Assembly: GCA_040776805.1 (NCBI GenBank) | Contig: JAXGZS010000004.1 | Location: forward strand, 151,215 to 215,214 | From: Clostridiales bacterium | Lineage (GTDB): Bacteria; Bacillota; Dehalobacteriia; UBA7702 | Reading direction: 5' to 3' | Length of the DNA stretch: 64,000 bases | Shown here: positions 2,736 to 43,643 of the stretch, one piece after another | How the letters are laid out: each line of letters begins with the position of its first letter | Position numbering within the stretch: the first letter of the stretch is position 1 | Made by a program: the position numbers and the translations under genes | Notes under the pieces: generated by a model | Seen by the model: the letters and a program-made list of their open reading frames with translations, nothing else | Database searches by the model: none | Told to the model about the DNA's origin: nothing

Positions 2736-2751
2736 AAATAAGAATGCGTGC

Positions 2752-2783: not shown

Positions 2784-2823
2784 TTTTGTACCTTAACCGA
2801 TCTTGCTGTTTTTCCAATGAACC

Positions 2824-3057: not shown

Positions 3058-3069
3058 AACCACGATAAA

Positions 3070-3115: not shown

Positions 3116-3154
3116 TTTGATTTGCGGATCGCGGCATGTTCACAGGATCTGAGT

Positions 3155-4586
3155 TTAAGACGGCCCTGATATCCTCGTTTTTATCCGCTGCCGCAGATCT
3201 ATCCAGGCCGGCGGCCGCAGAATCGCGATGGCAATGACATAGATCGCAATTCCCAACAAAACCTGAAGCAAGATACCGCCGATGGTGGCTTTGATGACGG
3301 TCCCTGTCAAACGCAGGATCAGGTACATGATGGTCGCAGCCACACAGTATTTTACGGAGCCATGCAACAGCTTGCGGAGATCAAACTGTCTCGAAACCAC
3401 AATGACTTGATAGATGGCGGCGGCGATTTCCGTCAGAATGGCGCCGATCACCGCGCCAAAGAGGCCGATCTTCCAAATCAGCAAAATCCCCGTCACCACG
3501 TTGACCGCCAGAGCGCAAAGCACGGCAAAGGTATACTGTTTCATCTGATTGGTGGGTAAAAGATAGAGAGAACCGATGATGCAGGTCAAACCCATGGGAA
3601 GCATCATCAAAGCATGCAACTCCAACAATCTCCCGGTCGTCTCGTATTGAGTGCCAAAAAATATGGGGGCAAATTCGGGGCCAATGACCGATAGACCAAG
3701 GGCAAGGGGTAGAACGATGAGAAGGCTGTATTGAAGCGCTGTTTTCAGGTAATCCTCTGCCTTCTCGATCTCTCCCTGGGCATAAGTATAGGAGGAGCGG
3801 GGCATCATCACAGTGCCGATGGAGATGATTAACGACACAAACAAACGCACAATTTTATCAGAATTTTCAAAAAACCCGCAAGCCTCCACGCCGCACATCA
3901 AACCCAGCAAGGATTTATTCAAAACAGAATAAATCTGCACCGCGGCAAAGGATACAAAAAAGACCAAAGCCCACTTCATGTAGGCCCGAATACACAGTGA
4001 CTTCCTCCTTACTTTTACAATGGAAGAACTCACGAGAGGCAGCAACGAAAGATTGCCCAAGACTTCGCTGGCGGACAGAATAACGATATAGATCAAAATG
4101 TCTTCTTTTGTGCGAACCAGTAAAAAGATCAGAATCATCCGGCGACCTTAACGAGGATATTGCGAAGCGCCGTTACCTTGAAATTTTCCGGCCCACAAAA
4201 AGCCAGGAAGTATCCAAAGCACAGGCGATGATCAACAGGGATTGTCCTAAAAGATAATTGCGATAGGATGGCGCCGCGGCCAAAACCACCCCGAACATCA
4301 AAAGAGCCAGGCAGACCAGGCCAATCTTAAGCAGCATGATCTCCCAAAACGTGCGGGAGCACTTTTCCAAGTCGTCCCGGCATTGAGCGATACAGCGGCT
4401 GCCGTAAGTCGCCAGACCAAAATTGGCAAATAAAACAAAGTACTGGGTAATGGAATTTGTATACGAAACCATGCCGATCCCCGATGGTTCCAATACCCTG
4501 GAAACATAGGGTATGATAACCAGCGGAATCAGCACTGCTGAAAACTGATATAGAATTGTATACAAATAGTTTCTGATAACTTTCAT
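3155..4586 (-). pseudogene. Wzx-like (PST/MATE-type) polysaccharide flippase, split by a frameshift near 4140-4175
   Basis: The N-terminal ORF 4173-4586 begins MKVIRNYLYTILYQFSAVLIPLVIIPYVSRVLEPSGIGMV, a typical flippase N-terminus. The adjacent ORF 3155-4138 continues in another frame with multiple transmembrane helices. Together they total about 465 aa. This could be a true pseudogene or a sequencing indel. Confidence 0.55.
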
Positions 4587-4606
4587 TTTTATCCAGTATG
4601 AATCTA

Positions 4607-5578
4607 TTATGGTTTCAAGGAAAAGTGCCAGTATATTCTATACACTATGGCATGAATCAGCCTGCTGCGCAACAACAACCAAAGACTGATTCTGGCTTTT
4701 ATCGGGAATGCTTTCACTATTTTGGGGGTTTCCAGGGCTCTTACTTTTTCCACAACCTTTTGATAGAATTCATCCAATTGAGGTTTTGTATCTTTTCCGC
4801 GCAAAAGAATCGTATAAACCATCAGATGTACATACATCTCTTTACGCTGGCAGATTTCTTTTAAATCCGGGAATTGTTCCGCAATAAACGCCGTGCTCGC
4901 CTTGGTTGCGTTCACATAGCTGATTTCAAAAGCGTCCCCTTTTGTAATACTCCCCTGACGTTGTCTATAATAGTATTTTGGTGAAGAATCGTATACGATG
5001 CAGTTTGCCCTGGCAATGATTTTGGGAGTCACCAGAATGTCTTCAGCAAGGACACCGGAAGGGAAACGAATGCTCTGCAATAGATTGACATCAAATAATT
5101 TTCTGCACAAACTTTCGTCAAAATACCCAAAATCAACGATTTTTTCAAGGGCTTCTTGGGCGTTCATTTTTAAATAGGTATCGCCGACCCCTTCCTTTTG
5201 CGAACACTTTTCATAGACAAACCAGGTTCCGCAAATCGAAATCTGCGCGTTTTCTTTTTTCATATTATGGTACAACAGCTCCAGCATATCGGGAGCAATA
5301 TAATCATCGCTATCCACAAAGGTCACATATTGGCCCCGGGCAACGGCCAAAGCATGGTTTCTGGCATCGGAGATACCTTGATTCTCCTGATGAAGGACAC
5401 GAATCCGTTTATCCTGGGAGGCGTAGCGGTCACAGATTTCGCCGCTGTGATCCGGCGAACCATCATCCACAAGAATCAACTCAAATTCCCGGTACGTTTG
5501 GGCAAGGATAGAATCAATACACTCTTCCAGGTATTTCTCCACATTATAAACCGGCACAATGATACTGATCAAAACCAT
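4607..5578 (-). CDS. family 2 glycosyltransferase
   Basis: ATG at 5578 follows an AGGAAAGGA Shine-Dalgarno. Sequence SIIVPVYNVEKYLEECIDSILAQTYREFELILVDDGSPD ... FVDSDD shows the GT-A DxD signature. Confidence 0.8.
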   Translation of the reverse strand: MVLISIIVPVYNVEKYLEECIDSILAQTYREFELILVDDGSPDHSGEICDRYASQDKRIRVLHQENQGISDARNHALAVARGQYVTFVDSDDYIAPDMLELLYHNMKKENAQISICGTWFVYEKCSQKEGVGDTYLKMNAQEALEKIVDFGYFDESLCRKLFDVNLLQSIRFPSGVLAEDILVTPKIIARANCIVYDSSPKYYYRQRQGSITKGDAFEISYVNATKASTAFIAEQFPDLKEICQRKEMYVHLMVYTILLRGKDTKPQLDEFYQKVVEKVRALETPKIVKAFPIKARISLWLLLRSRLIHAIVYRIYWHFSLKP

Positions 5579-5637
5579 TTGTTCCTTTCCTCGTTGTCCT
5601 TTTATAGCTTGGCTTGAACTGTTTCGCTTCCGTCGCC

Positions 5638-7068: not shown

Positions 7069-7080
7069 TTTTCACACTTT

Positions 7081-7923: not shown

Positions 7924-7929
7924 GGTTTA

Positions 7930-8949
7930 TCACCTGTTACCGTACATTTTTTCATAGTAGTTTTGGTACTCCCCGGCCAGAATCTCTTCCCACCAGTCCC
8001 GATGTTCCAAATACCAGCCAATCGTCTTGGCGATACCGTCGCTGAACGCGGTCTGCGGCAGCCAGTCCAGCTCGTTATGGATCTTTGTGGGGTCGATGGC
8101 GTAGCGCATATCGTGTCCGGGGCGGTCTTTTACGTAAGTAATGAAACTTTCCGGCTTATCAAGAGCTTTTAAGATCGTTTTCACCACATCGATATTGGCC
8201 TTTTCATTATGGCCGCCGATGTTATAGACTTCCCCTATCCTGCCCTTTCTCATCACCAGATCGATGGCACGGCAGTGGTCCTCCACATAAAGCCAATCGC
8301 GGACGTTTTTGCCGTCGCCGTAAACCGGCAGGTTCTCATCGTTTAAGGCTCTCACAATCATCAGCGGAATCAGCTTTTCCGGAAAATGATAGGGGCCGTA
8401 ATTATTGGAACAGCGGCTGATGGAAACCGGCAGGCCGTAGGTGCGGTGATAGGCCAGTACCAGCAAATCAGCGGCAGCCTTCGATGCCGAATAGGGACTG
8501 CTGGTATGGAGAGGCGTTTCCTCGGTGAAAAAGAGGTCCGGCCGATCCAGGGGCAAATCGCCGTAAACTTCATCGGTGGATACCTGATGAAAGCGGTCGA
8601 TGCCGTATTTGCGGCAGGCGTCCAACAATACCTGGGTACCTAAAACATTGGTTTGCAGAAAGATTCCGGGATCCTCCACGGAGCGGTCCACATGGCTCTC
8701 GGCAGCAAAATTGACCACCATATCGAATTCTTCCTCTTCAAACAGGGGAAATATGCTGTCTCTGTCGGCAATATCGCTTTTGACAAAACGGAAATTGCTT
8801 TGATCAAGTATGCCGTCGAGGTTTTTCAGATTCCCCGCATAAGTCAGCAGGTCCAGACAGACAATGCGGTCTTCAGGGTGATGGTGCTGCTGATCATAGA
8901 TGAAATTACTGCCGATGAAACCGGCACCGCCGGTGACAAGGATATTCAT
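7930..8949 (-). CDS. rfbB: dTDP-glucose 4,6-dehydratase
   Basis: MNILVTGGAGFIGSNF start, a YSASKAA catalytic motif and a 339-aa length. Confidence 0.9.
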   Translation of the reverse strand: MNILVTGGAGFIGSNFIYDQQHHHPEDRIVCLDLLTYAGNLKNLDGILDQSNFRFVKSDIADRDSIFPLFEEEEFDMVVNFAAESHVDRSVEDPGIFLQTNVLGTQVLLDACRKYGIDRFHQVSTDEVYGDLPLDRPDLFFTEETPLHTSSPYSASKAAADLLVLAYHRTYGLPVSISRCSNNYGPYHFPEKLIPLMIVRALNDENLPVYGDGKNVRDWLYVEDHCRAIDLVMRKGRIGEVYNIGGHNEKANIDVVKTILKALDKPESFITYVKDRPGHDMRYAIDPTKIHNELDWLPQTAFSDGIAKTIGWYLEHRDWWEEILAGEYQNYYEKMYGNR

Positions 8950-9515
8950 ACGTTATCTCCTTTAAAGATGAAATTGCAGTCACTGTCTTTTAACAGCGGC
9001 GCGTTTTGATCTTTCGCCGATAAAATCGGATCGCCAACGCCCCAATCAACCCCGATGAAAGGATCGTCAAAGCGAATGCTGCGGTCGCAATCGGGGCAAT
9101 AGGGATTGTCCACTTTATAGAGAAAGATCACATCTTCGCTGAGGGTAACAAAGCCGTGGCCAAAACCGCGAGGCAGCAGCAACTGCCGGTGGTTTTCGGC
9201 GGTCAGTTCCACGCCGACCCACTGTCCGTAATAGGGCGAACCTTTTCGCAGATCCACTGCCACGTCCATCACAGCGCCTTGTACCACCCGCACCACCTTG
9301 GCCTGGGCCATAGGCTCCTGCTGAAAGTGGATGCCCCGGACAGTCCCCTTTTTTGCTGTAAAGCTCTCATTATCCTGCACAAAACGAAAATGTAAACCCT
9401 GGTGTTCCCATGCTGCGGTGGACCAGGTTTCCGTAAAATAACCGCGATGATCTCCGAAAACCTTCGGTTCTATGATATAAACGCCGGGCAGCGCTGTTTC
9501 GATCCGTTCCATCAT
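8946..9515 (-). CDS. rfbC: dTDP-4-dehydrorhamnose 3,5-epimerase
   Basis: LPGVYIIEPKVFGDHRGYFTETWS is an RmlC cupin motif. Length 189 aa. Confidence 0.9.
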   Translation of the reverse strand: MMERIETALPGVYIIEPKVFGDHRGYFTETWSTAAWEHQGLHFRFVQDNESFTAKKGTVRGIHFQQEPMAQAKVVRVVQGAVMDVAVDLRKGSPYYGQWVGVELTAENHRQLLLPRGFGHGFVTLSEDVIFLYKVDNPYCPDCDRSIRFDDPFIGVDWGVGDPILSAKDQNAPLLKDSDCNFIFKGDNV

Positions 9516-9521
9516 AACCTC

Positions 9522-10406
9522 TCAATATCTGATTTTTCCTTCGGCCACGCGTTTTAAATGTTCGCCGTAAGGTGATTTGCCGTAGCGGCACGCCGATTCC
9601 TTCAGGGTTTCTTCACTGATCCAGCCGTTGATATAAGCAATCTCTTCCGGTGCGGAAATCTTAATGCTCTGGCGCATTTCAATCATGCGCACGAAATCCG
9701 CCGCTTCACTCAAAGAATTGACGGTGCCCGTATCAAACCAGGCAAAACCGCGACCCATCAACTCTACGTTCAATGCTTGATTCTCTAAATAGAGCCGGTT
9801 TAAGTCGGTGATCTCCAGTTCTCCCCTGGGGGAGGGTTTCACCTTTTTGGCCAGTTTGGCCACACGGTTATCGTAAAAATAAAGCCCGGTGAGGCAATAG
9901 TTGGATTTGGGGTTTTGCGGTTTCTCTTCCACCGATAAGACTTTGCCGTGTTCATCGAATTCCACAATCCCGAAACGCTCCGGATCCGAGACGTAATAAC
10001 CGAAGACCGTCGCAATGCCTTTTTCGGCATTCCCCACGGCGTTTCTCAGCATGGAACGAAAACCGTTGCCGTAAAAGATATTATCCCCTAAAATCATGGC
10101 ACAGCAGTCGTCGCCGATAAACTCTTCCCCGATCAAAAAGGCTTGGGCCAATCCGTCGGGAGAGGGCTGCACCTGATAGGAAAGGCGAACGCCGTATTGA
10201 GTGCCGTCGCCCAAAAGTTTTTCAAAATTCGGCAGATCCTCCGGGGTAGAGATGATCAAAATATCCCGAATCCCCGCCAGCATAAGGGTGGATAGAGGGT
10301 AATACACCATGGGTTTATCGTATACCGGCAACAGCTGTTTCGATGTTACCATGGTGAGGGGGTAAAGTCGCGTACCGGCGCCACCGGCTAAAATGATACC
10401 TTTCAT
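9522..10406 (-). CDS. rfbA: glucose-1-phosphate thymidylyltransferase
   Basis: [18 protein letters not shown] nucleotidyltransferase motif. Length 294 aa. Confidence 0.9.
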
Positions 10407-11365
10407 TGTTTCTCTCCCGTTTGCGTATGATGACGGTCATTCCCAAAACAAATTAACCATATATCACAGATTAAACTTTTCCAGCGAATGGTACCATAAC
10501 TGCCATACAATTTCAGCAGGGACAGCAGCTTTCTGTGTCGGATCAACTGCATTCGCTGTTGATGAAACGCATGCTTTGCTTTGATTTTTTCGTTCCCTTC
10601 CAATAAGGGTAAATCAGCGGCCAAAAGCTCCGAAAGTATGCGATCATAATGGACCATTTCCGTAAGTTTTCGTCTCAAATTCAATAGTTTCTTAATGCGG
10701 TGTTCTTCTCCGGCAGTATTATTCCCATGCCTCCGGTGATCGCAACCGCAATACTTATACTCAAAAAAACATCCTTTTTCCGCGGCAAAAAGCGCAAAAA
10801 TGAGATCATGGGGCACGGACAACTGACGGTAATACGAAGATGTCTCCTCAAAAAAGGAACGGCGCAACGCCATCGTCATCCCAGGCCAACGATAAGAATA
10901 CAAAATATCATCGGTGGAAACGGACTCTAATTCTTCGCTCAACGACGACGACTCAATCATGAAACCGTGGAGTGGCTGATCGTTTTCATCAATCACACCA
11001 AAATTGCAGCTGAGCACCGCAACTTCGGGATGAGTAGAAAAAACAGTGGCCATTTTCTCAATTTTATCCTCCCGCCACAGGTCATCCTGATCCGATAAGA
11101 AAATCAGCTCTGCGGAGGATAAAGAAATCGCGTAATAAAAATTTTGGACATAACCGAGGTTTGTCGCATTGCGGTATAGCTTCCAATTCGCTTCAAGGCG
11201 GCGGGAAGTGATAAAATCGTTGATGATGGCCACGGAATCATCATTGGAACCGTCATCGCAAATGATAACCTCATCTGCTTTTCGGCTTTGGTTATAAATA
11301 GAAGCCAATTGCTTTTCAATGAACCTCTCACCGTTATAGACCGCGATGACAACAGCGATGTGCAT
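10403..11365 (-). CDS. family 2 glycosyltransferase (rhamnosyltransferase-like)
   Basis: [25 protein letters not shown] ... [10 protein letters not shown] ... LSDQDD are GT-A motifs. The start overlaps the rfbA end. Confidence 0.75.
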
Positions 11366-11368
11366 GGA

Positions 11369-12862
11369 TCAGATCTCCTTCCGGCGAATGCTAAAAGATG
11401 ACCCCAAGAATATCAAGAAAGTGGTTCCCCATAACAGCCAAACCGCGAAAATGCTCATCCAGGGAGTAAAAAAGGATAGAAAAACCGGGGTCAAAGTGTT
11501 TCCATAGACCATAAAGCTACAGGGTGTTTGATATTTCAGGAAAAATGCCTCAATGATTCCAAAACCAACGCCCCAGAGTAAAGAAAGAAACACGATCCCG
11601 AAAAGATGAAAATCATAATAAGCATCGCTGAACAAATTACCTGTATTCAAATACGGGCGCACCAAATAATTCTCTGCATTCTCTATCTTTTCCGTCAAAC
11701 TGTCACTGCGGAGAATCACGTTAAAGGGTACCAATTCACGAATTCCCATGGCATAGCTTTTAGAAAAACGTACCGCCTGATCAAAATTATCATGACCCAC
11801 GGTCAGGTATGTATAAAAAAACAATACTTTAGGAGGCAACTGAAAGATGGGCGGTGCCGCTGTGCCGGTCTGGCTTTCTGTATTGTTATTTTCCTCGCCT
11901 AACCCGTTCATCTCTCCGTTTTCCGGCTGGCTGATCTCCTGTTGCTGATTTCCGTTATTATCATTACTGATTTCGATTTGTTTCGGTTGTAGAAGGGCAT
12001 TTAAAGATTCATCTGTTAAGTTTCTGGCAACGCTGCCGACCTCATAACCGGCAAACATGATGACAAAACAAAGCACCAGAACCCAAAGTTTTCTGCCGTT
12101 GAGAAAAAAGACGGCCGCAGACAAAGATAATGCCGCAACCATAAAGGTACCTCGCGATACGATTAAAGTCGGCATTAAAAAAACGAGATAAATAATGGCA
12201 GACCACAGTAGGATTTTTTTGATACGACTGAGCTTTTGTTTTTTCAAACAATAATAACATAGGCCGGAAGCAATGGTCCCCGCATAGATAAAGATATTAA
12301 ATCGCGTATAAAAATCAGTATAAGCGGCGGGTGAATCAGAGAAGAAGGGCAGATATCCCTTTATATAAATATTTATAATAAAAGCGAGGAGGCTCATGAC
12401 AGTTGCCGCCATACAAAGGGCAAAAAGCCGGTTCTCTTTCAATCCAAAAATAATACGGCCTTCACCCTTAAAAACCGTCCAATCATGCATATTGAATTTT
12501 TTCGATAAAGCGGGAAAGAGGTCCCTCCCCAGTTGCAGGCCACAAATTAAGCAGAGGTAACCAACTCCTGAATACCACCAGCTCCTGGCGATCCAATCCA
12601 CCTGGTACTCCGTTAGCTGAAAGCTTGCCAGCCCTAATGTAAAAAGCCAGATTCCGGAAAAAAGAGCCTGAAAGCTAAAATAATTTTTATGATCTTTCCA
12701 AACAAAGTAACCGTATAAAACAACTGCTGAAACTAAAAAAAGCAGGCCGACTAGATAACGGTGTTCTTCTATGATGAAGGGAGCAGAACCAAAAAGTATG
12801 ATGCTCCAGATAATAACAGGGAGTAGTTTTTTCAATCCATTTTTAAGATTCATCTCTTCCAC
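11369..12862 (-). CDS. polytopic membrane protein, probable O-antigen/repeat-unit polymerase (Wzy-like)
   Basis: 497 aa with about 10 hydrophobic helices. A large N/Q/E-rich low-complexity loop (NDNNGNQQQEISQPENGEMNGLGEENNNTESQ) is present. Its position among glycosyltransferases and a flippase supports the call. Confidence 0.5.
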   Translation of the reverse strand: MEEMNLKNGLKKLLPVIIWSIILFGSAPFIIEEHRYLVGLLFLVSAVVLYGYFVWKDHKNYFSFQALFSGIWLFTLGLASFQLTEYQVDWIARSWWYSGVGYLCLICGLQLGRDLFPALSKKFNMHDWTVFKGEGRIIFGLKENRLFALCMAATVMSLLAFIINIYIKGYLPFFSDSPAAYTDFYTRFNIFIYAGTIASGLCYYCLKKQKLSRIKKILLWSAIIYLVFLMPTLIVSRGTFMVAALSLSAAVFFLNGRKLWVLVLCFVIMFAGYEVGSVARNLTDESLNALLQPKQIEISNDNNGNQQQEISQPENGEMNGLGEENNNTESQTGTAAPPIFQLPPKVLFFYTYLTVGHDNFDQAVRFSKSYAMGIRELVPFNVILRSDSLTEKIENAENYLVRPYLNTGNLFSDAYYDFHLFGIVFLSLLWGVGFGIIEAFFLKYQTPCSFMVYGNTLTPVFLSFFTPWMSIFAVWLLWGTTFLIFLGSSFSIRRKEI

Positions 12863-13673
12863 TTTTTTCTCTTTTCACCTGATTGATTTTTTTCTTTATA
12901 ATTCTACGGATATATTTCAAAAAGTAAAATACTCTCAAAAAGCAATAAAAACCTTTGGAAAGAATCCTTTGCTCTTTCAGTTCACGGCTGTATCTCACTT
13001 CACCTTCGTGCATTTCTTTTAAATGCGAGGACAAACCGGAGCTGGCGTAAAACGGTTTAAAGGGATCAATTTTGAGCAGAAAAACAGGAATATGATAATA
13101 ACCAAAGCCTTCTGCACAAACACGAAAGCAAAACCCGGCATCCTCCATATAGTGAACCCCTTCCTCAAATCCACCGACTTTTTCAAATACGGTCTTGCGC
13201 ACCAATATACTGGAGGTGGAAGGGAACGATTTCAGACAAAGATCTTTGACCTTCACGCGGTATAATGTATCTATTTTACGATGGAGAATCCTCAAAGGAA
13301 TATCATCGTTGTTGCAGCCAAGGAAATCGATTTCTGGATGAGTTTCCAGGATATTCCACTGAGTCTCGATCTTTTCCGGTAACCAAAGATCATCCGCGTC
13401 AATAAACGCAATCCAGCGGCCGGAGGCCGCCCTAACGCCATCGTTACGGGCAGCGGCAACACCGCCGTTTTCTTTGTTTATAAGACGGATACAAACCTCT
13501 TTATGAGCTTCACAGTACGCAGTGATAACGTCACGAGAACGATCCGTGGAGCCATCGTTAACAATAATAATTTCTTTCAGCAGAGACGCGGCTGTTTGTT
13601 TACGCACAGAGTCCAATACTTGTACAATGGTTTTTTCGCTATTATATACAGGTATTACAACTGAAATATCCAA
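12843..13673 (-). CDS. family 2 glycosyltransferase
   Basis: MDISVVIPVYNSEKTIVQVLDSV ... IVNDGSTD ... FIDADD. Confidence 0.8.
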   Translation of the reverse strand: MDISVVIPVYNSEKTIVQVLDSVRKQTAASLLKEIIIVNDGSTDRSRDVITAYCEAHKEVCIRLINKENGGVAAARNDGVRAASGRWIAFIDADDLWLPEKIETQWNILETHPEIDFLGCNNDDIPLRILHRKIDTLYRVKVKDLCLKSFPSTSSILVRKTVFEKVGGFEEGVHYMEDAGFCFRVCAEGFGYYHIPVFLLKIDPFKPFYASSGLSSHLKEMHEGEVRYSRELKEQRILSKGFYCFLRVFYFLKYIRRIIKKKINQVKREKSGRDES

Positions 13674-13757
13674 CGGTTTACCTTTCTATTTACGGCATGA
13701 TCATAGAGCGCCACAATCATAGGGTGCCCATCTGAGGAGCGACGGAGGCCCTCACGG

Positions 13758-14912
13758 TCATGACTGTTTTTCTCCGGCAAGGATATGCTTTATCCCCTGA
13801 TAAAATTTCTTTTCGAAACAATCATAGGAGAATTGCTCTTCAAACAATTTACGGCAATTTTCCCGCATCAAATGGCACTCCCCTGTCAAAGACTGGAGAA
13901 GCTCTAAGGCCGTCTCTTCCGCCGTTCCGGCCCAGGCAACCCCTACCCGATAGCGGCGAATGAAGTCAGCGGTATCACCGCTGATGGTGTTGACCACCGG
14001 CAAACCGCATTCAAAACAATCGATGCTCTTCATGGTCAAACCAATACAAACCGTATCCTTTAGTATATTGAGACCAAAATGACATTGATCAAAGATTTTC
14101 TGCTTTTCCTCCATATCATACAGCTCACCGTAAAATTTCACAGTGGCGCCGGCTTTTTTTAAGCCGTCGAGAAAAGCGTCTTTGTTCTCACCGTTGCCGA
14201 TCACATGTACGGTAACCGGCATCTTGGCGGCAAGCGCCTGCACAAGACCGCATATGCGGGGAATGTCGATGATATTATTGATGGAACCCAAATAAGCGAG
14301 GCTAATCTGCTGTGGGGGCAAAGAGGGCTCGCTGGAGAACGGGCGTATCTGCCGGGAAAGGTAGAGGGTAGATAGTTTCCCCTCCAAAGCGGAAGTGTCG
14401 ATTACCGAATGAAAAAGGTCGCATTCGGTGAAAACATGCTCCGCGCAGCTGAGATATCGGTCTCTCAGATTTTTCCAGCACCGGCAGGGAAATAGATGCA
14501 TCGCGTTTTTGATCGGCAATGTTTCCGGCCATAGGTCAAGAATGTCAAAAATCACCTTGACATTGGCATGGCGTGCCTTATATTCTGCTGTCCGTTTTAC
14601 CAGAGAATTCGGCGGCACGATCACATAGAGGAGATCGGGATCAAAGGTTTCCGCTTTTTTCAACGCTTCTCTGGCAAAAATACGGTGAGAGTTGATTCTG
14701 GCAAAGGATAAGTTCCGCCGGTAGGGTTTCGTCGGAATAAAAACGAGATCGTCCCTGTGATCCGTTCTCCGCTCCCGCTGCAAATGGCGAAAATCCGATT
14801 CGATGTAAATCGGATGATACCCCAAAGCGGCCAATTGCTCGCCCGCCGCCATCATTCTCTCTTCGTAAAATTCAAAACAGGTGATCAACACCGCAGTCTT
14901 TTTTGCATCCAT
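13758..14912 (-). CDS. GT-B fold glycosyltransferase (GT4-like)
   Basis: 384 aa. The C-terminal half has a nucleotide-sugar binding-like region (FYGELYDMEEKQKIF ... GLPVVNT). Confidence 0.55.
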   Translation of the reverse strand: MDAKKTAVLITCFEFYEERMMAAGEQLAALGYHPIYIESDFRHLQRERRTDHRDDLVFIPTKPYRRNLSFARINSHRIFAREALKKAETFDPDLLYVIVPPNSLVKRTAEYKARHANVKVIFDILDLWPETLPIKNAMHLFPCRCWKNLRDRYLSCAEHVFTECDLFHSVIDTSALEGKLSTLYLSRQIRPFSSEPSLPPQQISLAYLGSINNIIDIPRICGLVQALAAKMPVTVHVIGNGENKDAFLDGLKKAGATVKFYGELYDMEEKQKIFDQCHFGLNILKDTVCIGLTMKSIDCFECGLPVVNTISGDTADFIRRYRVGVAWAGTAEETALELLQSLTGECHLMRENCRKLFEEQFSYDCFEKKFYQGIKHILAGEKQS

Positions 14913-14921
14913 TTTCCGTTC

Positions 14922-15953
14922 TTACTCCGTACCACTGGTAGATTTATCGGTTGCGCCGGTGAAAGCATCGTCGCCATAAATGGCCGTATGGATACGCTTC
15001 GCCGCCTCATCCAAATTATAAATATAATACCAGACGCCATCGCTGTCAATGCCGCCCCAAAGATCCGTTTCATAGGTGGCATCGGGAACCGTATATTGTT
15101 CGATGCTGAAATCCGTGAGGGCGATGGGGGAAAGACCAAGAATCTCACTGTAGCTCAGGGAGGTTTCCGCCGTACCCAAAAACTGACGGATAAAATGAGG
15201 ATAATCCGTCTTCGACATTGATTTGATCTTGCCAAAAGCCGCGGACAGCACCTTTTGCTGCCGGGTGGCGCGAGCATTGTCGCTGTCTATCTTGCGAATG
15301 CGGGAATAGGAAACGGCCTGCTCACCGGTGAGGTTCACCTCGCCGGCAGCGGCAATCGTGGTTGTTCCGGGAAAATACTGCAGCGCCAAAGCGTTGGCCA
15401 TATCCACCTCCGCCTGGCTCAAGGTCAAAGTGACGCCGCCCACCGCGTTGATGATCGTCGCCAATTGGCTAAAGTTGACGGTGATGTATTCTTTGATGTC
15501 GAGATTAAACGTCTCATTCAGGGTCTTAATCGCCAAAGCAGGGCCGCCGTAGGCATAAGCGGCGTTGATTTTATTTTCGCCGTGTCCATCGATGGACACT
15601 TTGCTGTCCCTTAAGATCGAGGTCATTTTGATGATGTTCTTATCCTGATCCAAGGTAAGAATGATGATCGTGTCACTGCGCCCGGAATCGGCGCTGGTAT
15701 CCCTGGTATCGACGCCAAAGAGGGCGATATTCGTAATACCGCCGACACTGACCTCTTCTCGAACGCCCAATTCTTCATCATCATTGGTAAAACTCACCGT
15801 GTTCAAATTGCCAAATAAATAGAAAAACGCGCCGCCTGCCGCAATGCTCATCATCAAAACAATCAGTAATATGATCATGATTGTTTTTAAAATCCGGTTT
15901 TGTCTTTTCCTGTTTTTTACCGTTCGTTTTTTATCAGACATCTTCTTTCCCAT
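14922..15953 (-). CDS. LytR-CpsA-Psr (LCP) family cell-wall glycopolymer ligase
   Basis: An N-terminal transmembrane anchor, then NIALFGVDTRD...SDTIIILTLD...KMTSILRDS...INAAYAYGGP, which is the LCP signature. Confidence 0.85.
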   Translation of the reverse strand: MGKKMSDKKRTVKNRKRQNRILKTIMIILLIVLMMSIAAGGAFFYLFGNLNTVSFTNDDEELGVREEVSVGGITNIALFGVDTRDTSADSGRSDTIIILTLDQDKNIIKMTSILRDSKVSIDGHGENKINAAYAYGGPALAIKTLNETFNLDIKEYITVNFSQLATIINAVGGVTLTLSQAEVDMANALALQYFPGTTTIAAAGEVNLTGEQAVSYSRIRKIDSDNARATRQQKVLSAAFGKIKSMSKTDYPHFIRQFLGTAETSLSYSEILGLSPIALTDFSIEQYTVPDATYETDLWGGIDSDGVWYYIYNLDEAAKRIHTAIYGDDAFTGATDKSTSGTE

Positions 15954-16141
15954 CTTAGCGTTGGATTTTTATGTAAAAACGTCAGTTTTATTTCAGTATA
16001 CTTGAATTATTCTGAATAATCAACCGAAATAGAGGAATTGCGAAAAAAATTACAGCAATATTACAGTAAAATCACCATAAAATCACCCCGCCTTATGCTT
16101 CTATTTGTGCACAAGACAGGGTGATTTCTCTGCCGCTGTTT

Positions 16142-29163: not shown

Positions 29164-31684
29164 TTAGCTTTTATTTTCTATCGTCATTATCAATCGATAG
29201 ATGATCGTAGCCACCTCTGCTCTGGTGGCATGATCTTGCGGGCAGAACTGTACGCTGGTCTTGCCGTTCACGATGCCGGCCCGCTGCATCAAGGTAACGC
29301 TTTCCTTGGCCCAGGACGAAATACGCTCATCATCGGCAAAGGCGATTTTATCATACTTCAGCGGTATTTGAATGGAATTCTTCTGTAAATAACGCTGGAG
29401 CATCGTTACAAGGGCTTCTCTCGTAATGGGCGCATTAGGAGAAAACTTATTGTTTCCGGTACCGTTGGTGATGCCCTCTGCCACCCCCCAAATCACTCCA
29501 TCAGTATACCAGACGTTGTCGGCAACATCACTAAATTGATTTCCGCTTTGCTCCACCGGAGATCCGCCGGCATAACGGTATAAAACGGTTACAAACATGG
29601 CCCGGGTCATTTGATCATTGGGGGCGAAGCGACGATCCCCCACACCAAAAAAAAGCTGCTGTTTGACGACGAAATTCACGCCCGGCGTATACCAGGCGTC
29701 CTCTTTTACGTCGTCAAAGACCATTAGCCAGCCGGCATAAAGCGTCGTATCCGCTTTGACAGCGGTATCGAAATCATATGGGTGATTCCACTCTTTATCA
29801 CTGTACCAGCCGGTAAACCCATAGCCGCTGCGCTGAGGAGCGGTGGGAGCTGTGACATTGCTTCCGTTGGCTACCACTCTGGTCGTTACCGAGCTGCCGC
29901 CGCAGGAGTCAAAATAGACGTTACAATATGAGGAAGCGACTTTCAACGCGTCTACACGGCCGTAACCATAAATGAAATCAAAGCCCGTATTACCGAGATC
30001 TACCGCCTTATTTAACAGTACTGTACGAATTTCCGCCGCGCTTAAAGATGGAAATCTGGATTTCACAAGGGCCGCCACCGCCGCCACATGGGGAGAGGCG
30101 GCGCTGGTACCGTAAAAGGGGCTGGAGAACCCTCCCGCACCGGTCACGGCAACCCCATCCACACCGCAAATATCGGGTTTTTCCCGTGTTCCCGAAATCA
30201 TCGTGACCGGGCCCCGGGAGGAGAAGTCTTCGATGGAATTGGGTGTCGCCACATTGATGGCGCCGCAAGCCAATACGCCGGGAACCGCGGGATGTCCAAA
30301 AATAGAATCCTGTGCCACCAGATTATCAGTTAAGGAATACGCGTTGCCATCATAGTAAAGATACACTTCCAAAATGTCTGCGCTGTTTCCCAAGGCGGCA
30401 TGAACATAAAAATCCGCCAGAATATCTTTGCCGGAAGAATTATCATAATAAATGATTTCCGTTGGAATACCCGTTGTTGTATTATGATCAACGGAACAGC
30501 CCAGCATAGCGCCGGTATGGTAATTTGTCAACGCGATATCATAATCACTGGTTACGTTTCCTATGGGATCGTTCCATTGCAAAATAACCGTTACCCCCGA
30601 GTTTGCCGGGATGACCATATATAAGTCTTCGTCATCCGAGGCGCCGTGACTAAAATCGTGAAAATCGTAAGCGCTGCGATAAAAATTCCCTTGATAATGA
30701 TTTTTACCGTAATTTCCGGCAGAAGAAACGAAGAGAACCTTTCCCTGATCGGAGATTTTTTTTACATGTTGCGCAACCACGCCGTCTTCAAAGAAGGGTT
30801 CGCTAATCCAACCGATATCATCACATATGATATCACAACCGGCTGCAACGAGATCGTCAATGCCGCGGTTAAAAGCGAGGACGTTCGTCCCGCAATCATG
30901 AAAATACAATTTTGCGCCCGGGGCGATATCATGGATAATCTCCAGCATTGCTGTGCCTTCGTCCCCGCTGCAAGTATTGCTCAAAACCGAAACAGAGCTG
31001 GGCAGATCACCTTTGGCGACTGCCGCTGAAAGATGATCAACACCGTCGGAAATCACCCCGATTTTCACGCCGGTTCCGTCCACACCATAGGTACTTCTCA
31101 TTTGGGCGGCTTTTAAGATACTGTCCCCGGCAGTAACCACAGATCCCGCGTTAACTTTGGGACGGACGACCTCCGTCACACTGCAAACCGCGTCAAGGGC
31201 GGCGACCGCTGCCAATTGATCCACAGCGACCCAGGCGGCCGCCAAACCGCTTGCTTCATCATAATCTTCCAGTGACAAGAGATAAGGCTCTAAGGCTTCC
31301 AGGTTATCCCCGCTACATAGCCTTATGTATACATAAACGCCGGTTTCCCTTGAAGCCGAAGCACCGTTGCTGATGGGCTTTTCGCTGATTTGCCCCTGCT
31401 CTTTCATTTCCTTCCATACATCGGACATTGTCTTGCCCTCGGGTAAATAAGCGTCATTCACAAGAGGCTGCAAGGTGCTGGACAATTTCGCCGCAGAAGA
31501 GTCGGCGTTCTTCCATTTCCTCTGCCATAAACGGCAAAAAGGTGCTCTCCTCCGCAGCTTTGACTGATGGTAATGACAAAGCGGAAAACTGATTGAGGGA
31601 GATTGCGGCGGACAATCCCGCCGGAAGCAACAACCAACCAAATGCAATCATTGTCATTCCCAAAAACCAAAACCATTGTTTCAT
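29164..31684 (-). CDS. SLH-anchored subtilisin-like serine protease (S8). The signal peptide (ORF 31454-31774) is out of frame with the body (ORF 29164-31647), so a frameshift lies within 31454-31647
   Basis: The body has the S8 catalytic regions (GVKIGVISDGVD; HGT...; SGTSAASPHVAAVAAL) and three C-terminal SLH repeats. A separate frame upstream encodes MKQWFWFLGMTMIAFGWLLLPAGLSAA with a GGGGGA Shine-Dalgarno. Confidence 0.6.
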
Positions 31685-32104: not shown

Positions 32105-32184
32105 GGTTTTGCTTTATCAAAAAGGGAGGGCCGGTTTTCACCGGCCCGGAGGGCGGCAGAGGCCGGGGGATAGGATCCCGGCCT
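32105..32184 (-). terminator. tandem GC-rich hairpins plus a U-tract downstream of the giant surface-protein gene
   Basis: gaggccggg...cccggcctc, then gggccgg ttttca ccggccc followed on the minus strand by TCCCTTTTTG. Confidence 0.55.
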
Positions 32185-32212: not shown

Positions 32213-35200
32213 TTAGTGAGGCCAAACGATGTTCGGCTTCAATGCCGTCCAGGTTTCGGTTCCGTCTTCGTTGCGTTCGTAATAGTGGCTGTTCGTCGCT
32301 TCCTGCATTGCCAGGTAATACCATTTCGTCGTATCCATGTTATCGGGCCAGACGATCATACCTAAGAGCAGCGCTTCCGGAGAAGCAGGAATACGATTCA
32401 ACACATTATTGATCAACGTAACCGCTTCAGCACGGGTGATGTAGAGATCGGGCCGGAACGAATGGTCTTCATAGCCTTTAACCCAACCGTTGTTGGCGGC
32501 AATATTGATTTCGTCTTCCGCCCAATGCCCTGCAATATCCGTAAAATCGGTGGGCGTTGTATCACCGCTGCCGTCAAACCTGGCGGCGATGGCGGCAAAT
32601 TCCGCTCTGGTGATGTATCCGTTGGGATGGAACGTATTATCCGGATAACCCTTTACAATATTCAGTGCACGCAGAGTCAGTACTGCTGTGCTGTACCAAG
32701 CTCCATCGGGGACATCGCTGAAAGAATTGGAGCTTGTAGAATAGGCATCGCTGGCTTTTTCTGTCAGCAAGCGGTAGAAGATCGTCGCAACCTCGGCACG
32801 GGTGATATTTCTTCCCGGTCCAACGTTCCCGTCCGGATAACCGATGATATACGCGAAGTGATCTTCATCGTTGAGTAAGGGGTTGATGGTAAAATCAGCG
32901 GGAATGACAGTAACATCGTAGTTGCTGTTTTCGGTGTAGCCCGCGGTGATGACTCCGGTGTAGGTACCGGCGTCTTCCGCCGAGTTCGTGCGGTAATAGA
33001 AAACAGTACCAAGATCACCTGCATTGACCAAACCGTCAATGGTACCGCCAAAGCTCGGATCGGCTTCGCCGACGAATTTATCGGCATCGTTTACGGTAAT
33101 CGTCACAGGTTTCATCGTTACAATCAAGGTGCCGCTGTTCACAGTAACATATGGGTACGTACCTTCCGTAGTGATATCATAATCAGCAAGGTTAACGGCG
33201 AAACCGACGTTGGTGATGCTGCCGGTAACGGTGACGGTGATTTCATCGCCGTTCGGTAAGAAGTATTTGCCTTCCCCGTCCGCCGTAACCGGCGCGCCGT
33301 CACAAGTAATGGTGAAACCATCGTCGCTGTGGGAAGCGCCGTCATAGGTCCAGCTGTTGCTGTTTGCCGTAATCACGATGATGTTATCGTTTTCGATGAT
33401 GATCGGCATGGAGATCGTGAAGTCACCGGGAACGATTGTAACATCGTAATTGGTGTTGGCGGTATAGTCGGCGGTCAGCACATCGTCATAGGTGCCGACG
33501 GCTTCGTCACTGTTGGTACGGGAATAGCTAACGGTGCCCAAATCATCACCGTTCACGAGGCCGTTCACGGTACCGCTGAAAGTAGGATCAGGATCACCCA
33601 CCGTTTTCCCTGCGTCATTTACGGTAATCGTAACCGCTTTTGCCGTCACGGTCAGGACACCGTCGGTGGCGGTAACGTCGCTGTAGTTTCCTTCATTTTC
33701 CAGGGTGTAAGCGACGCTGTTGGCCGCAGTACCGACGTCGGTGATGCTGCCGGTAACGGTGACGGTAATTTCATCACCGGTGGGTAAGAAGTATTTGCCG
33801 TCCCCGTCCGCCGTGACTGCCGCGCCGTCGTAGGTAACGGTGAAACCGTCGTCGCTGTGGGAAGCGCCGTCATAGATCCAGCTGTTGCTGTTTGCCGTAA
33901 TCACGATGGGGTTTTCATCGGCAGTGATCGTGAAGTCTCCGGGGACAACCGTTACATCGTAATTGGTGTTGGCGGTATAGTCGGCGGTCAGTACGTCGTC
34001 ATAGGTGCCGACGGCTTCGTCGCTGTTGGTGCGGGAATAGCTGACGGTGCCCAAATCATCACTGTTCACGAGACCGTCCACAGTACCGCTGAAGGCGGGA
34101 TCCGCCGTGCCGTACACTTTATCCGCGTCGTTTACGGTAATCGTAACTTCTTTTGCCGTCACGGTCAGGACACCGTCGGTGGCGGTAACGTCGCTGTAGT
34201 TTCCTTCATTTTCCAGGGTGTAAGCGACGCTGTTGGTCGCAGTACCGACGTCGGTGATGCTGCCGGTAACGGTGACGGTGATTTCATCACCGGTGGGTAA
34301 GAAGTATTTGCCGTCCCCGTCCGCCGTGACTGCCGCGCCGTCGTAGGTAACGGTGAAACCGTCGTCGCTGTGGGAAGCGCCGTCATAGATCCAGCTGTTG
34401 CTGTTTGCCGTAATCACGATGGGGTTTTCATCGGCAGTGATCGTGAAGTCTCCGGGGACAACCGTTACATCGTAATTGGTGTTGGCGGTATAGTCGGCGG
34501 TCAGTACGTCGTCATAGGTGCCGACGGCTTCGTCGCTGTTGGTGCGGGAATAGCTGACGGTGCCCAAATCATCACCGTTCACGAGGCCGTCCACGGTACC
34601 GCTGAAAGTAGGATCAGGATCACCCACCGTTTTCCCTGCGTCATTTACCGTAATCGTAACTTCTTTTGCCGTCACGGTCAGGACACCGTCGGTGGCGGTA
34701 ACGCCGCTGTAGTTTCCTTCATTTTCCAGGGTGTAAGCGACGCTGTTGGCCGCAGTACCGACGTCGGTGATGCTGCCGGTAACGGTGACGGTGATTTCAT
34801 CACCGGTGGGTAAGAAGTATTTGCCGTCCCCGTCCGCCGTGACTGCCGCGCCGTCGTAGGTAACGGTGAAACCGTCGTCGCTGTGGGAAGCGCCGTCATA
34901 GATCCAGCTGTTGCTGTTTGCCGTAATCACGATGGGGTTTTCATCGGCAGTGATCGTGAAGTCTCCGGGGACAACCGTTACATCGTAATTGGTGTTGGCG
35001 GTATAGTCGGCGGTCAGTACGTCGTCATAGGTGCCGACGGCTTCGTCGCTGTTGGTGCGGGAATAGCTGACGGTGCCCAAATCATCACCGTTCACGAGGC
35101 CGTCCACGGTACCGCTGAAGGCGGGATCCGCCGTGCCGTACACTTTATCCGCGTCGTTTACCGTAATCGTAACCGCTTTTGCCGTCACGGTCAGGACACC

Positions 35201-35701
35201 GTCGGTGGCGGTAACGTCGCTGTAGTTTCCTTCATTTTCCAGGGTGTAAGCGACGCTGTTGGTCGCAGTACCGACGTCGGTGATGCTGCCGGTAACGGTG
35301 ACGGTGATTTCATCACCGGTGGGTAAGAAGTATTTTCCGTCCCCGTCCGCCGTAACCGCCGCGCCGTCGTAGGTAACGGTGAAACCGTCGTCGCTGTGGG
35401 AAGCGCCGTCATAGATCCAGCTGTTGCTGTTTGCCGTAATCACGATGGGGTTTTCATCGGCAGTGATCGTGAAGTCTCCGGGGACAACCGTTACATCGTA
35501 ATTGGTGTTGGCGGTATAGTCGGCGGTCAGCACGTCGTCATAGGTGCCGACGGCTTCGTCGCTGTTGGTGCGGGAATAGCTGACGGTGCCCAAATCATCA
35601 CTGTTCACGAGGCCGTCCACGGTACCGCTGAAGGCGGGATCCGCTGTGCCGTACACTTTATCCGCGTCGTTTACGGTAATCGTAACTTCTTTTGCCGTCA
35701 C
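32213..35701 (-). CDS. C-terminal 1162-aa intact portion of the giant SLH-domain surface protein (5.5 copies of a 171-aa repeat plus three SLH repeats)
   Basis: The repeat unit TAKEVTITVNDADKVYGTADPAFSGTVDGLVNxDDLGTVSYSRTNSDEAVGTYDDVLTADYTANTNYDVTVVPGDFTIT... looks like an MBG-type adhesin-associated domain. The C-terminus carries NITRAEVATIFYRLL and ITRAEFAAIAARF SLH motifs. Confidence 0.75.
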   Translation of the reverse strand: MTAKEVTITVNDADKVYGTADPAFSGTVDGLVNSDDLGTVSYSRTNSDEAVGTYDDVLTADYTANTNYDVTVVPGDFTITADENPIVITANSNSWIYDGASHSDDGFTVTYDGAAVTADGDGKYFLPTGDEITVTVTGSITDVGTATNSVAYTLENEGNYSDVTATDGVLTVTAKAVTITVNDADKVYGTADPAFSGTVDGLVNGDDLGTVSYSRTNSDEAVGTYDDVLTADYTANTNYDVTVVPGDFTITADENPIVITANSNSWIYDGASHSDDGFTVTYDGAAVTADGDGKYFLPTGDEITVTVTGSITDVGTAANSVAYTLENEGNYSGVTATDGVLTVTAKEVTITVNDAGKTVGDPDPTFSGTVDGLVNGDDLGTVSYSRTNSDEAVGTYDDVLTADYTANTNYDVTVVPGDFTITADENPIVITANSNSWIYDGASHSDDGFTVTYDGAAVTADGDGKYFLPTGDEITVTVTGSITDVGTATNSVAYTLENEGNYSDVTATDGVLTVTAKEVTITVNDADKVYGTADPAFSGTVDGLVNSDDLGTVSYSRTNSDEAVGTYDDVLTADYTANTNYDVTVVPGDFTITADENPIVITANSNSWIYDGASHSDDGFTVTYDGAAVTADGDGKYFLPTGDEITVTVTGSITDVGTAANSVAYTLENEGNYSDVTATDGVLTVTAKAVTITVNDAGKTVGDPDPTFSGTVNGLVNGDDLGTVSYSRTNSDEAVGTYDDVLTADYTANTNYDVTIVPGDFTISMPIIIENDNIIVITANSNSWTYDGASHSDDGFTITCDGAPVTADGEGKYFLPNGDEITVTVTGSITNVGFAVNLADYDITTEGTYPYVTVNSGTLIVTMKPVTITVNDADKFVGEADPSFGGTIDGLVNAGDLGTVFYYRTNSAEDAGTYTGVITAGYTENSNYDVTVIPADFTINPLLNDEDHFAYIIGYPDGNVGPGRNITRAEVATIFYRLLTEKASDAYSTSSNSFSDVPDGAWYSTAVLTLRALNIVKGYPDNTFHPNGYITRAEFAAIAARFDGSGDTTPTDFTDIAGHWAEDEINIAANNGWVKGYEDHSFRPDLYITRAEAVTLINNVLNRIPASPEALLLGMIVWPDNMDTTKWYYLAMQEATNSHYYERNEDGTETWTALKPNIVWPH

Positions 35702-36725
35702 GGTCAGGACACCGTCGGTGGCGGTAACGTCGCTGTAGTTTCCTTCATTTTCCAGGGTGTAAGCGACGCTGTTCGCCGCAGTACCGACGTCGGTGATGCT
35801 GCCGGTAACGGTGACGGTGATTTCATCACGGTGGGTAAGAAGTATTTGCCGTCCCCGTCCGCCGTGACTGCCGCGCCGTCGTAGGTAACGGTGAAACCGT
35901 CGTCGCTGTGGGAAGCGCCGTCATAGATCCAGCTGTTGCTGTTTGCCGTAATCACGATGGGGTTTTCATCGGCAGTGATCGTGAAGTCTCCGGGACAACC
36001 GTTACATCGTAATTGGTGTTGGCGGTATAGTCGGCGGTCAGTACGTCGTCATAGGTGCCGACGGCTCTGTCGCTGTTGGTGCGGGAATAGCTGACGGTGC
36101 CCAAATCATCACTGTTCACGAGACCGTCCACAGTACCGCTGAAGGCGGGATCCGCCGTGCCGTACACTTTATCCGCGTCGTTTACGGTAATCGTAACTTC
36201 TTTTGCCGTCACGGTCAGGACACCGTCGGTGGCGGTAACGTCGCTGTAGTTTCCTTCATTTTCCAGGGTGTAAGCGACGCTGTTGGTCGCAGTACCGACG
36301 TCGGTGATGCTGCCGGTAACGGTGACGGTGATTTCATCACCGGTGGGTAAGAGTATTTGCCGTCCCCGTCCGCCGTGACTGCCGCGCCGTCGTAGGTAAC
36401 GGTGAAACCGTCGTCGCTGTGGGAAGCGCCGTCATAGATCCAGCTGTTGCTGTTTGCCGTAATCACGATGGGGTTTTCATCGGCAGTGATCGTGAAGTCT
36501 CCGGGACAACCGTTACATCGTAATTGGTGTTGGCGGTATAGTCGGCGGTCAGTACGTCGTCATAGGTGCCGACGGCTTCGTCGCTGTTGGTGCGGGAATA
36601 GCTGACGGTGCCCAAATCATCACCGTTCACGAGGCCGTCCACGGTACCGCTGAAGGCGGGATCCGCCGTGCCGTACACTTTATCCGCGTCGTTTACCGTA
36701 ATCGTAACCGCTTTTTTTTTGATAT
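32890..36725 (-). repeat. 513-bp tandem repeat array, about 7 near-identical units plus one degenerate unit, in coding sequence
   Basis: The periodicity shows in the ORF track (33652, 34165, 34678, 35191 and so on). Units are above 95% identical at the nucleotide level. Confidence 0.9.
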
Positions 36726-38129
36726 CAAGAGTCCCCGGCACATAGTTAATATTGATATGACTTGTAACGTCCGTGGTACCATTCTTCACCGTTGCAGTTC
36801 CCTGAAACGTGCCATCATAGCTGCTTACATCGGTGCCTTCCGCCGTATAAGTAATTCCCGTAACAGTGTAGCCTGCGGGTAAACCCTCGACATCATAGTC
36901 CGTCAAGCTTTGCTGGCTTCCGTTATAGATTAAGCTGGAACTGTCTCCGATAATCACAATGGATTTACTGTAAGTATATTTAACGTCAATGGTGGATGTC
37001 GTATCGGCGGCGGTAACGGTAAACGTCACGGTGCCGTCGGCAGCCACCTGATAATCTGTGATGCCGGTAACGGTAACACCCGTGTAAGACCAGGTGCCTT
37101 CCGGTACCGTAGGTCCTGTGGTTGCGGGAGTAAAGGTGTAATCACCTTCCGGTAATCCGCTCAAGGTCGTTGGTACTGACTGGGCGTAATCGTATTGATT
37201 GGCAATGTCTCCATAAGCATGAGTAACATCAATGCCGCCGGATACGGTATAAGGTGTTGAGCTAAGACCAAAACCGCCGTCACCCATGAATAATATAACG
37301 GAAAGCGTAATCACGGTAGCATGGTCCATCGGGGCTTTGATGACAATCCAATGTTGATCATTATGAGGAATGGTTGTCCCCGCGTTAAGCACACGGACAT
37401 CGTTTTCATAAATCTGTAAATTTTTCCCGGTTTCAATGTCATAAACATCTGCTTCAATGTTGCCGATGATCTCGGTACCGTTAACAAGGACAGATTTCAA
37501 ATTGAGATCATACACTTGTTTTGCGGCATCAAGCGCGATGTATGTACTGCCGTTATACTGCCAGATGTACATTGCCTCGTTCTTGCCGTTGGTAGAGTGA
37601 CCATCAAGTTCATAGACATTGGTCTCCGTCAAAAATATACCTTCACCGGGATCCATAATCACTTCAGCTTTTGCGGGTAAAGATGAGAAAGTAAGTAGTA
37701 ATGTCATCACCAAAAGAATCGCGAAACTCGATTTCTTCATTTTGCTCCCCTCCTTCGTTTTTTTCAGCAAAATGGTTTCTCTTTGTCCATTGGGAAACTT
37801 TGCGGTTCTTTCATTTTTGCTTTTGTCGCCGGCATCTTTCTTGCCTTGTTGTACCATTTCCCCCTCACCGTTTTTACAGTGTTTTATGGGTTTTCCTGCG
37901 TCCGGGAAAAGTGTCATCTTTTTGTGAAACAATCGGCCATTCCTTTCGATAGGCTTGCGGTAAAATGATGACCACCCCCTTTTTTACGATATGCAAAGTT
38001 TCTATTATTATCATCATAATAATTGATAATAACGTTTTGCGCATGGCCCATAGGGTATCAATCCTTAAAAAAAAACAAACCGGATAAAAAAGTATCACGG
38101 CTTGTAAAATATTATGATGTACCGGTCGT

Positions 38130-43335: not shown

Positions 43336-43411
43336 TGGTTGCGGAGACAGGACTTGAACCTGCGACCTCCGGGTTATGAGCCCGACGAGCTGCCAGCTGC
43401 TCTACTCCGCG
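43336..43411 (-). tRNA. tRNA-Met (CAU), initiator type
   Basis: Minus-strand cloverleaf CGCGGAG...CTCATAA...CTCCGCAACCA. It has a C1xA72 mismatch and three consecutive G-C pairs at the base of the anticodon stem, both hallmarks of the bacterial initiator tRNA. CCA is encoded. Confidence 0.8.
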
Positions 43412-43449
43412 TTATATAAAGGACAGAACAGGTCTACCCTATTGAACAA

Positions 43450-43534
43450 TGGTGGGGAGAGATGGATTCGAACCATCGAAGTCGTCGACAACAGATTTAC
43501 AGTCTGCCCCCTTTGGCCGCTCGGGAACCTCCCC
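43450..43534 (-). tRNA. tRNA-Tyr (GUA)
   Basis: 85 nt with a long variable arm. Anticodon loop CTGTAAA. Acceptor GGGGAGG/TCTCCCC. CCA is encoded. Confidence 0.8.
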
Positions 43535-43567
43535 TTATGATATCGCTAACATCGTATGTTATCAACA

Positions 43568-43643
43568 TGGTGCCGACAGAGAGACTTGAACCCCCAACCT
43601 ACTGATTACAAATCAGTTGCGCTGCCAATTGCGCCATGTCGGC
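43568..43643 (-). tRNA. tRNA-Thr (UGU)
   Basis: Acceptor GCCGACA/TGTCGGC, U8, D-stem GCGC/GCGC, anticodon stem ACTGA/TCAGT and loop TTTGTAA (anticodon TGT). T-loop TTCAAGT. CCA is encoded. Confidence 0.7.

Follow-up and report, generated by a model that had tools for sequence, protein, structure and literature searches.

Surface proteins that combine an N-terminal head, a stalk of MBG domains and three C-terminal SLH repeats are encoded by Clostridia and measure 1300-2000 amino acids (aa); examples are P0020-P0033 and, annotated as 'S-layer homology domain-containing protein', P0105 of Aminipila luticellarii and P0065 of Sedimentibacter saalensis. The same order of head, stalk and anchor is present on the minus strand at positions 32213..37740 of the stretch analysed here, a window of 64,000 nucleotides (nt) from a Clostridiales bacterium (assembly GCA_040776805.1, contig JAXGZS010000004.1, positions 151,215 to 215,214). 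In the deposited sequence this gene, which we call the adhesin gene, is broken by four single-nucleotide deletions. A second group of described cases is relevant to such lesions, namely the residual insertions and deletions (indels) of long-read consensus sequences. In a benchmark of PacBio-only assemblies all residual differences were deletions (PMC11649196), methylation motifs and homopolymers are the places where errors accumulate in nanopore consensus sequences (PMC6591954) and, in the available text of PMC9262707, indels in long-read assemblies are described as splitting genes. As far as the available text of these three articles goes, the lesions described below resemble such errors in being deletion-only, context-dependent and gene-splitting. 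We conclude that the organism's DNA probably contains the four bases missing from the adhesin gene, and that their absence probably reflects residual errors of the consensus or assembly, in the form of single-base deletions. This explanation is the best supported one because a second gene of the window is broken in the same way, all lesions are deletions, most of them share a CCGG context and they occur in clusters.

As sequenced, the maximal open reading frame (ORF) span on the minus strand, 32213-37932, falls into five ORFs: 36463-37932 (489 aa), 36215-36466 (83 aa), 35952-36212 (86 aa), 35704-35955 (83 aa) and 32213-35701 (1162 aa). The deposited frame that starts at ATG 37740 terminates after 425 aa, at 36463. 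Autocorrelation of the sequence gave a sharp peak at a lag of 513 nt, while Tandem Repeats Finder reported nothing, this period being longer than its 500-nt limit. Unit borders were determined by blastn with one unit as the query and units U1-U6 were aligned by MAFFT. The gene and its repeat array are arranged as follows:

32213..37740, minus strand: whole adhesin gene as if intact, 1843 aa once four bases are restored
36213..36723, minus strand: unit U1, 511 nt, with two 1-nt deletions
35702..36212, minus strand: unit U2, 511 nt, with two 1-nt deletions
33650..35701, minus strand: units U3-U6, 513 nt each, intact, 95.5-100% identical to U3
33116..33649, minus strand: unit U7, diverged (86% DNA identity), slightly longer with 178 aa
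32880..33115, minus strand: eighth unit, an MBG_2 domain alone (half-module), 72% DNA identity

The six modules U1-U6 are 94-99% identical in DNA. An initial reading made from the sequence only had counted about eight copies with more than 95% identity. The array of 171-aa (513-nt) modules on which it was based is real, and blastn divides the copies into six near-identical units and two diverged ones. The MAFFT alignment of U1-U6 contains exactly four gap columns, and these define the lesions:

36503..36505, minus strand: deletion 1, U1 column 219, CCCC to CCC (GGG on the plus strand), directly 5' of GG (CCCCGG to CCCGG)
36352, minus strand: deletion 2, U1 column 373, TT shortened to T, with the ACCGGT of the unit 12 nt downstream
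35992..35994, minus strand: deletion 3, U2 column 219, CCCCGG to CCCGG as in U1
35829..35830, minus strand: deletion 4, U2 column 385, ACCGGT to ACCGT, a G lost inside CCGG

When the four bases were re-inserted, a single ORF of 1843 codons was obtained, with the terminal stop only and no other lesion, and the restored U1 junction peptide contains DVTVVPGDFTITADENPIV. The four single-base deletions in the 5'-most units and the length of about 1840 aa that the sequence-only reading expected for a restored gene were both borne out. The restored ORF is also supported by the homologues of the same architecture, because these span a comparable range of lengths.

U1 and U2, which are adjacent, indeed carry the same GGGG to GGG change (column 219). 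It had been suggested that the mutated unit was itself duplicated, and this does not hold: U1 is nearest to the intact U4 (4 differences) and U2 to the intact U6 (6 differences), compared with 12 columns that separate U1 from U2. As the two are thus not sister units, such a duplication was rejected as the origin of the shared lesion. Besides sharing column 219, the two units have their remaining lesions 12 nt apart (columns 373 and 385), and this double coincidence has a P of about 0.002. Lesions at the same positions in non-sister units suggest a recurrent process driven by sequence context rather than inheritance. All four lesions furthermore fall in 676 nt of a gene of 5.5 kb, a clustering with a P of about 0.007. 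Private to U1 and U2 are the four deletions, one GA to AG swap and one synonymous change, and the private changes of U3-U6 are nearly all synonymous or lie in a block common to U7, with zero indels. The swap, at 36067-36068 of U2 (columns 145-146), replaces E by R and converts the otherwise invariant SDEAVG into SDRAVG; it looks more like a paired deletion and insertion than like two substitutions.

A surface gene that is broken by changes in run length recalls the contingency loci of Neisseria, Haemophilus and Campylobacter, and slipped-strand phase variation toggling the adhesin was among the explanations proposed at the outset. The product is predicted to be a surface protein and the lesions do lie in short runs. 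However, the tracts change from C4 to C3 (twice), from T2 to T1 and from G2 to G1, and tracts of 2-4 nt are far below the hypermutable length of contingency loci. Unlike in those loci, four separate lesions with a net shift of -4 are present, which are not reversible as a unit: tracts of 4, 2 and 2 nt would have to undergo four independent reversions. In addition, the sole simple-sequence tract of the adhesin gene that is long enough to slip is in frame:

36712..36720: A9 tract (plus strand: T9) where the N-terminal region meets U1, translated as KKK, in frame

We consider phase variation very improbable and abandoned this part of the sequence-only reading. A programmed ribosomal frameshift or transcriptional slippage that reads through the four sites is scarcely conceivable. 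At two of them the frame could formally be recovered by a -1 slip on CCC, but the X_XXY_YYZ heptamer occurs at none of the four, four successive events would leave a negligible yield and the intact units display the unshifted sequence as the normal state.

The window contains a second broken gene, which encodes a flippase:

3155..4637, minus strand: Wzx-type polysaccharide flippase, split in two ORFs, with two 1-nt deletions about 50 nt apart
4188-4191 and 4139-4142, minus strand: CCGG at the two flippase deletion sites, GGCCGG and GCCGG^ATG, respectively

A single frameshift was ruled out for this gene: the stop of the upstream frame precedes the last stop of the downstream frame, so that one event cannot join the ORFs. 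A model with two insertions scored 97.7 bits against Polysacc_synt, compared to 75-76 bits for the alternatives, and recreated the motif G-x-E-[DN]-F-K-V-T-A-L-R-N...V-K-x-A-G-M, which is conserved in intact homologues (72% and 69% identity, 488 and 478 aa, respectively). A codon-by-codon comparison with the 72% homologue placed the missing bases at GGC-CG?-GAA and GCC-GG?-ATG, and the flippase should be annotated as a single protein of about 477 aa. Its two lesions fall within 50 nt in a gene of 1.5 kb, a clustering with a P of about 0.07. No further copy of the flippase stretch was found within the window; being single-copy there, it does not owe its lesions to repeat ambiguity. The 72% homologue belongs to a polysaccharide cluster that is syntenic with the one described here; its contig, from a related organism, measures 2.65 Mb (L081; ENA ERZ21831019 ctg34037l). 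The gene order at positions 1-21467 of that contig is that of our window (LytR-CpsA-Psr, glycosyltransferases, rmlACBD, flippase), and behind it come four SLH paralogues of about 450 aa each and an insertion sequence (rve) element. In our window, a 107-aa ORF that matches no family overlaps the 3' end of the flippase gene (2857-3180, minus strand).

Taken over both genes, which lie 28 kb apart, six out of six lesions are 1-nt deletions, with zero insertions. Five of the six are located inside or directly beside CCGG, in the contexts CCCCGG (twice), ACCGGT, GGCCGG and GCCGG^A. As the background for this count we used CCGG together with the adjoining run and 1 nt on each side, which makes up 3.7% of the window; the binomial P was about 4e-7, or 9e-6 when the shared column-219 lesion was counted once. 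The motif was picked post hoc, and the P value survives correction for 256 tetramers. The association with CCGG and the recurrence at the same unit positions require some site-specific process. One form this could take is a CCGG-targeted process that truly made the deletions in two dispensable surface genes of this Clostridia lineage, the S-layer-anchored adhesin and the polysaccharide flippase. Possible candidates would be imprecise end joining after unprotected CCGG sites had been cleaved, or slippage linked to a methyltransferase or to repair, and such a process would explain lesions confined to non-essential genes. Nevertheless, we regard it as improbable. In the flippase gene two out of five CCGG sites are hit, against zero hits among the roughly 300 sites of other genes. 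CCGG is over-represented in the window (362 sites versus 207 expected, a ratio of 1.75), at odds with restriction pressure, and neither a methylase nor a nuclease gene was noticed there. Moreover, we know of no mechanism that gives clean 1-nt deletions at CCGG. Another tetramer, CTAG, is nearly absent from the window (6 sites versus 248 expected).

Fifty other ORFs of the window match their own Pfam profiles end to end; these comparisons replaced a self-trained 3-periodic Markov frame scan, which was too crude alone. Another explanation is that the deletions are real and recent, the adhesin and the flippase being young pseudogenes fixed in the strain or population and the adhesin gene giving at most a secreted, unanchored fragment of 425 aa. 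The deposited sequence does carry the deletions, and the public protein set has the fragments as separate products, P0001 (464 aa, N-terminal part of the adhesin) and P0204 (327 aa, C-terminal part of the flippase). Both genes have surface or envelope functions, which are often lost by bacteria, and the correct long homopolymers elsewhere in the window indicate that the assembly is not generally sloppy. Yet the first lesion already kills the adhesin, and three more follow within 676 nt; in the flippase gene, the second lesion lies only 50 nt off. No further decay accompanies the lesions, with zero stops in the 1843 restored codons and, in U1 and U2, four deletions versus two substitution events. 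The uniform occurrence of deletions, their accumulation at CCGG and the hits at the same positions of non-sister units also argue against a real inactivation. Altogether, we find it possible but rather doubtful. The 1162-aa fragment of the adhesin and the N-terminal fragment of the flippase have no entry in the protein collection.

Residual errors of the consensus or assembly, the explanation that we favour, would be context-specific, arising mostly at CCGG with an adjoining short run of C or G. They would be concentrated in locally poor stretches, namely the near-identical repeat array and the short flippase stretch 28 kb away. Since stretches of more than 270 nt are identical among the six units, the array is unlikely to have been assembled from short reads alone, which suggests that long reads were used. 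A plausible source of the errors would be a single-molecule long-read consensus that was left unpolished, or was unpolishable, at these stretches, and DNA modification at CCGG may, speculatively, have contributed. The sequence-only reading had listed an artefact typical of long near-identical repeats among its explanations. The artefact part is the one favoured by the second broken gene, the absence of insertions, the CCGG context and the clusters, and the repeats are probably not its sole cause, because the flippase gene is non-repetitive. A generic under-calling of long homopolymers was ruled out, given that 31 long runs were read correctly.

Several observations weigh against an artefact. 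These 31 long homopolymers (A/T of at least 7 nt or G/C of at least 6 nt, the longest being 9 nt) interrupt none of the ORFs in which they lie, and about 357 other CCGG sites of the window, including 31 CCCCGG, are apparently fine. The excess of CCGG gives no hint of a CCGG restriction system. The lesions also differ from the known residual indels of long-read sequences in that long homopolymers are correct here and in that the CCGG context is absent from the descriptions given in the available text of PMC11649196, PMC6591954 and PMC9262707. Methylation-linked nanopore errors are described mainly as substitutions, and a literature search for CCGG-linked nanopore deletions returned nothing relevant. 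An independent copy of the adhesin gene was not found by searching 5.8 billion proteins with the N-terminal ORF or by scanning genome and metagenome contigs, where the source fragment alone matched. Lastly, adhesin and flippase appear to fulfil dispensable surface functions, the class that is most often truly lost.

With the four bases restored, the locus is predicted to encode an SLH-anchored fibrillar surface protein of about 1843 aa. ATG 37740 is most likely its true start, because it is the first in-frame ATG with a ribosome-binding site; the span 32213-37932 given before stands as the longest ORF and not as the extent of the gene. The anatomy recognised in the sequence-only reading was correct, comprising a signal peptide, an N-terminal region, repeat modules with four 1-nt deletions and three SLH repeats. 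Besides the repeat units, the following features were identified:

37747..37753, minus strand: Shine-Dalgarno-like GGAGGGG, 6 nt before ATG 37740, read directly
37666..37740, minus strand: signal peptide MKKSSFAILLVMTLLLTFSSLPAKA, cleavage predicted before EV, by inspection
36961..37665, minus strand: N-terminal all-beta tip domain, aa 26 to about 260
36724..36960, minus strand: linker domain, similar to the latter half of a repeat module, with an IYNGSQQ motif, low-confidence model
32372..32869, minus strand: three SLH repeats, cell-wall anchor, by Pfam
32128..32147, minus strand: terminator-like hairpin GGGCCGGT-GAAA-ACCGGCCC with a T-rich tail, about 65 nt past the stop

Each 171-aa module consists of an MBG_2 domain and a second beta domain of about 95 aa without a Pfam family. 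MBG_2 (YGX type, PF18676; gathering cut-off of 25) was matched in every repeat unit and in both large ORF fragments, with 242.9 bits over six stretches in the C-terminal ORF, 53.4 bits in the N-terminal ORF and 60.1 bits for a single unit, while SLH (PF00395) reached 118 bits over three C-terminal stretches. Seven modules of 171-178 aa and one MBG_2 domain form a tandem beta stalk. Going by this architecture, the protein would leave the cell by Sec and be anchored non-covalently by its SLH repeats to a wall polymer, which for SLH-anchored proteins is expected to be a pyruvylated secondary cell-wall polymer, and its tip domain would be carried outward on a stalk of about 16 beta domains.

The AlphaFold2 model of the module, built with an alignment of homologous modules from other proteins, has a predicted local distance difference test score (pLDDT) of 96.7 and is all-beta, with two domains in tandem. 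The nearest solved structures were weak matches, with a probability of 0.97 and a template modelling (TM) score of 0.45 for SraP (4m00) and a TM score of 0.41 for Lar_0958. A tandem beta-domain stalk is likewise found in the fibrillar adhesins of Gram-positive bacteria, such as SraP (binding region, 4m00), Lar_0958 of L. reuteri (4ng0) and MUB (3i57), and the best solved matches are adhesin- or cadherin-like. With E values of about 8e-3 or worse and TM scores of 0.2-0.45, these matches are weak; the adhesin is not related in sequence to SraP, Lar_0958 or MUB, and no ligand can be inferred from them.

The tip domain, which comprises about 235 aa after the signal peptide, matched no Pfam or NCBIfam family, the NCBIfam matches being in the SLH region only. 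An exhaustive profile-free search returned weak relatives, with about 30% identity and E values of 1e-10 to 1e-4 (P0153, P0161, P0172, P0179, P0186, P0187 and P0195). All of them are N-terminal domains of wall-anchored proteins with MucBP, Flg_new or Cna_B stalks, and 20 positions are invariant in the alignment of the eight sequences. No close-range match to the tip domain was found in the other sequences searched. Its model is all-beta with a pLDDT of 66, and the best PDB matches were NEAT domains (E 4.7e-4, TM 0.42-0.49); a haem-binding NEAT assignment was discarded, the match being too weak.

Identity between the adhesin and the MBG_2 and SLH proteins of Clostridia amounts to 50-58% in the SLH part and 30-40% in the modules. 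Many of these relatives have a VWA head (PF00092/PF13519), whereas the adhesin has an orphan beta domain, and its modules, unlike theirs, are near-identical in DNA. The best matches to the repeat part were two Hungatella proteins annotated as 'doubled motif LPXTG anchor domain-containing protein' and 'MBG domain-containing protein' (P0016, 1911 aa, and P0017, 2031 aa), with 40-41% identity over about 80% of the query. They have the two-domain module in common with the adhesin, but they are anchored covalently by sortase through LPXTG instead of by SLH, and their head domains differ. Judged by its domains, the adhesin is a further MBG-module, SLH-anchored surface protein, of a kind that is already known and to which its head domain is new.

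The window has a cell-envelope theme, with a rhamnose, glycosyltransferase and LytR-CpsA-Psr cluster at 402-15968. Two more SLH proteins are encoded at 1293-2735 and 29164-31647; one of them, the product of the gene immediately downstream of the adhesin gene, is a subtilase that contains a Listeria-Bacteroides repeat. Three tRNA genes (Met-CAT, Tyr-GTA and Thr-TGT) were located at 43336-43643, on the minus strand, in a 710-nt gap between ORFs upstream of flagellar and chemotaxis genes. Among species representatives, the FlhA of the window had its best match, at 70% identity, in a Clostridiales metagenome-assembled genome, followed by Sedimentibacter with 63%. By all appearances the host is a member of a poorly sampled lineage of Clostridia.

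On the reading that we favour, the adhesin is to be annotated as one surface protein of about 1843 aa and not as a 464-aa protein accompanied by fragments. It presents a new head domain on a common stalk-and-anchor design, which leaves the knowledge of this kind of protein unchanged. If the lesions were real, they would be ordinary loss-of-function changes and represent a very recent loss of two envelope functions, of modest interest. The CCGG association is mainly a quality flag for the assembly, and it would be interesting only in the improbable case of a true mutational process. Should the CCGG deletion pattern hold genome-wide, it would serve as a motif-specific error flag for this assembly and for those made alike. 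A motif-specific error of this type would inflate pseudogene counts, above all those of surface genes.

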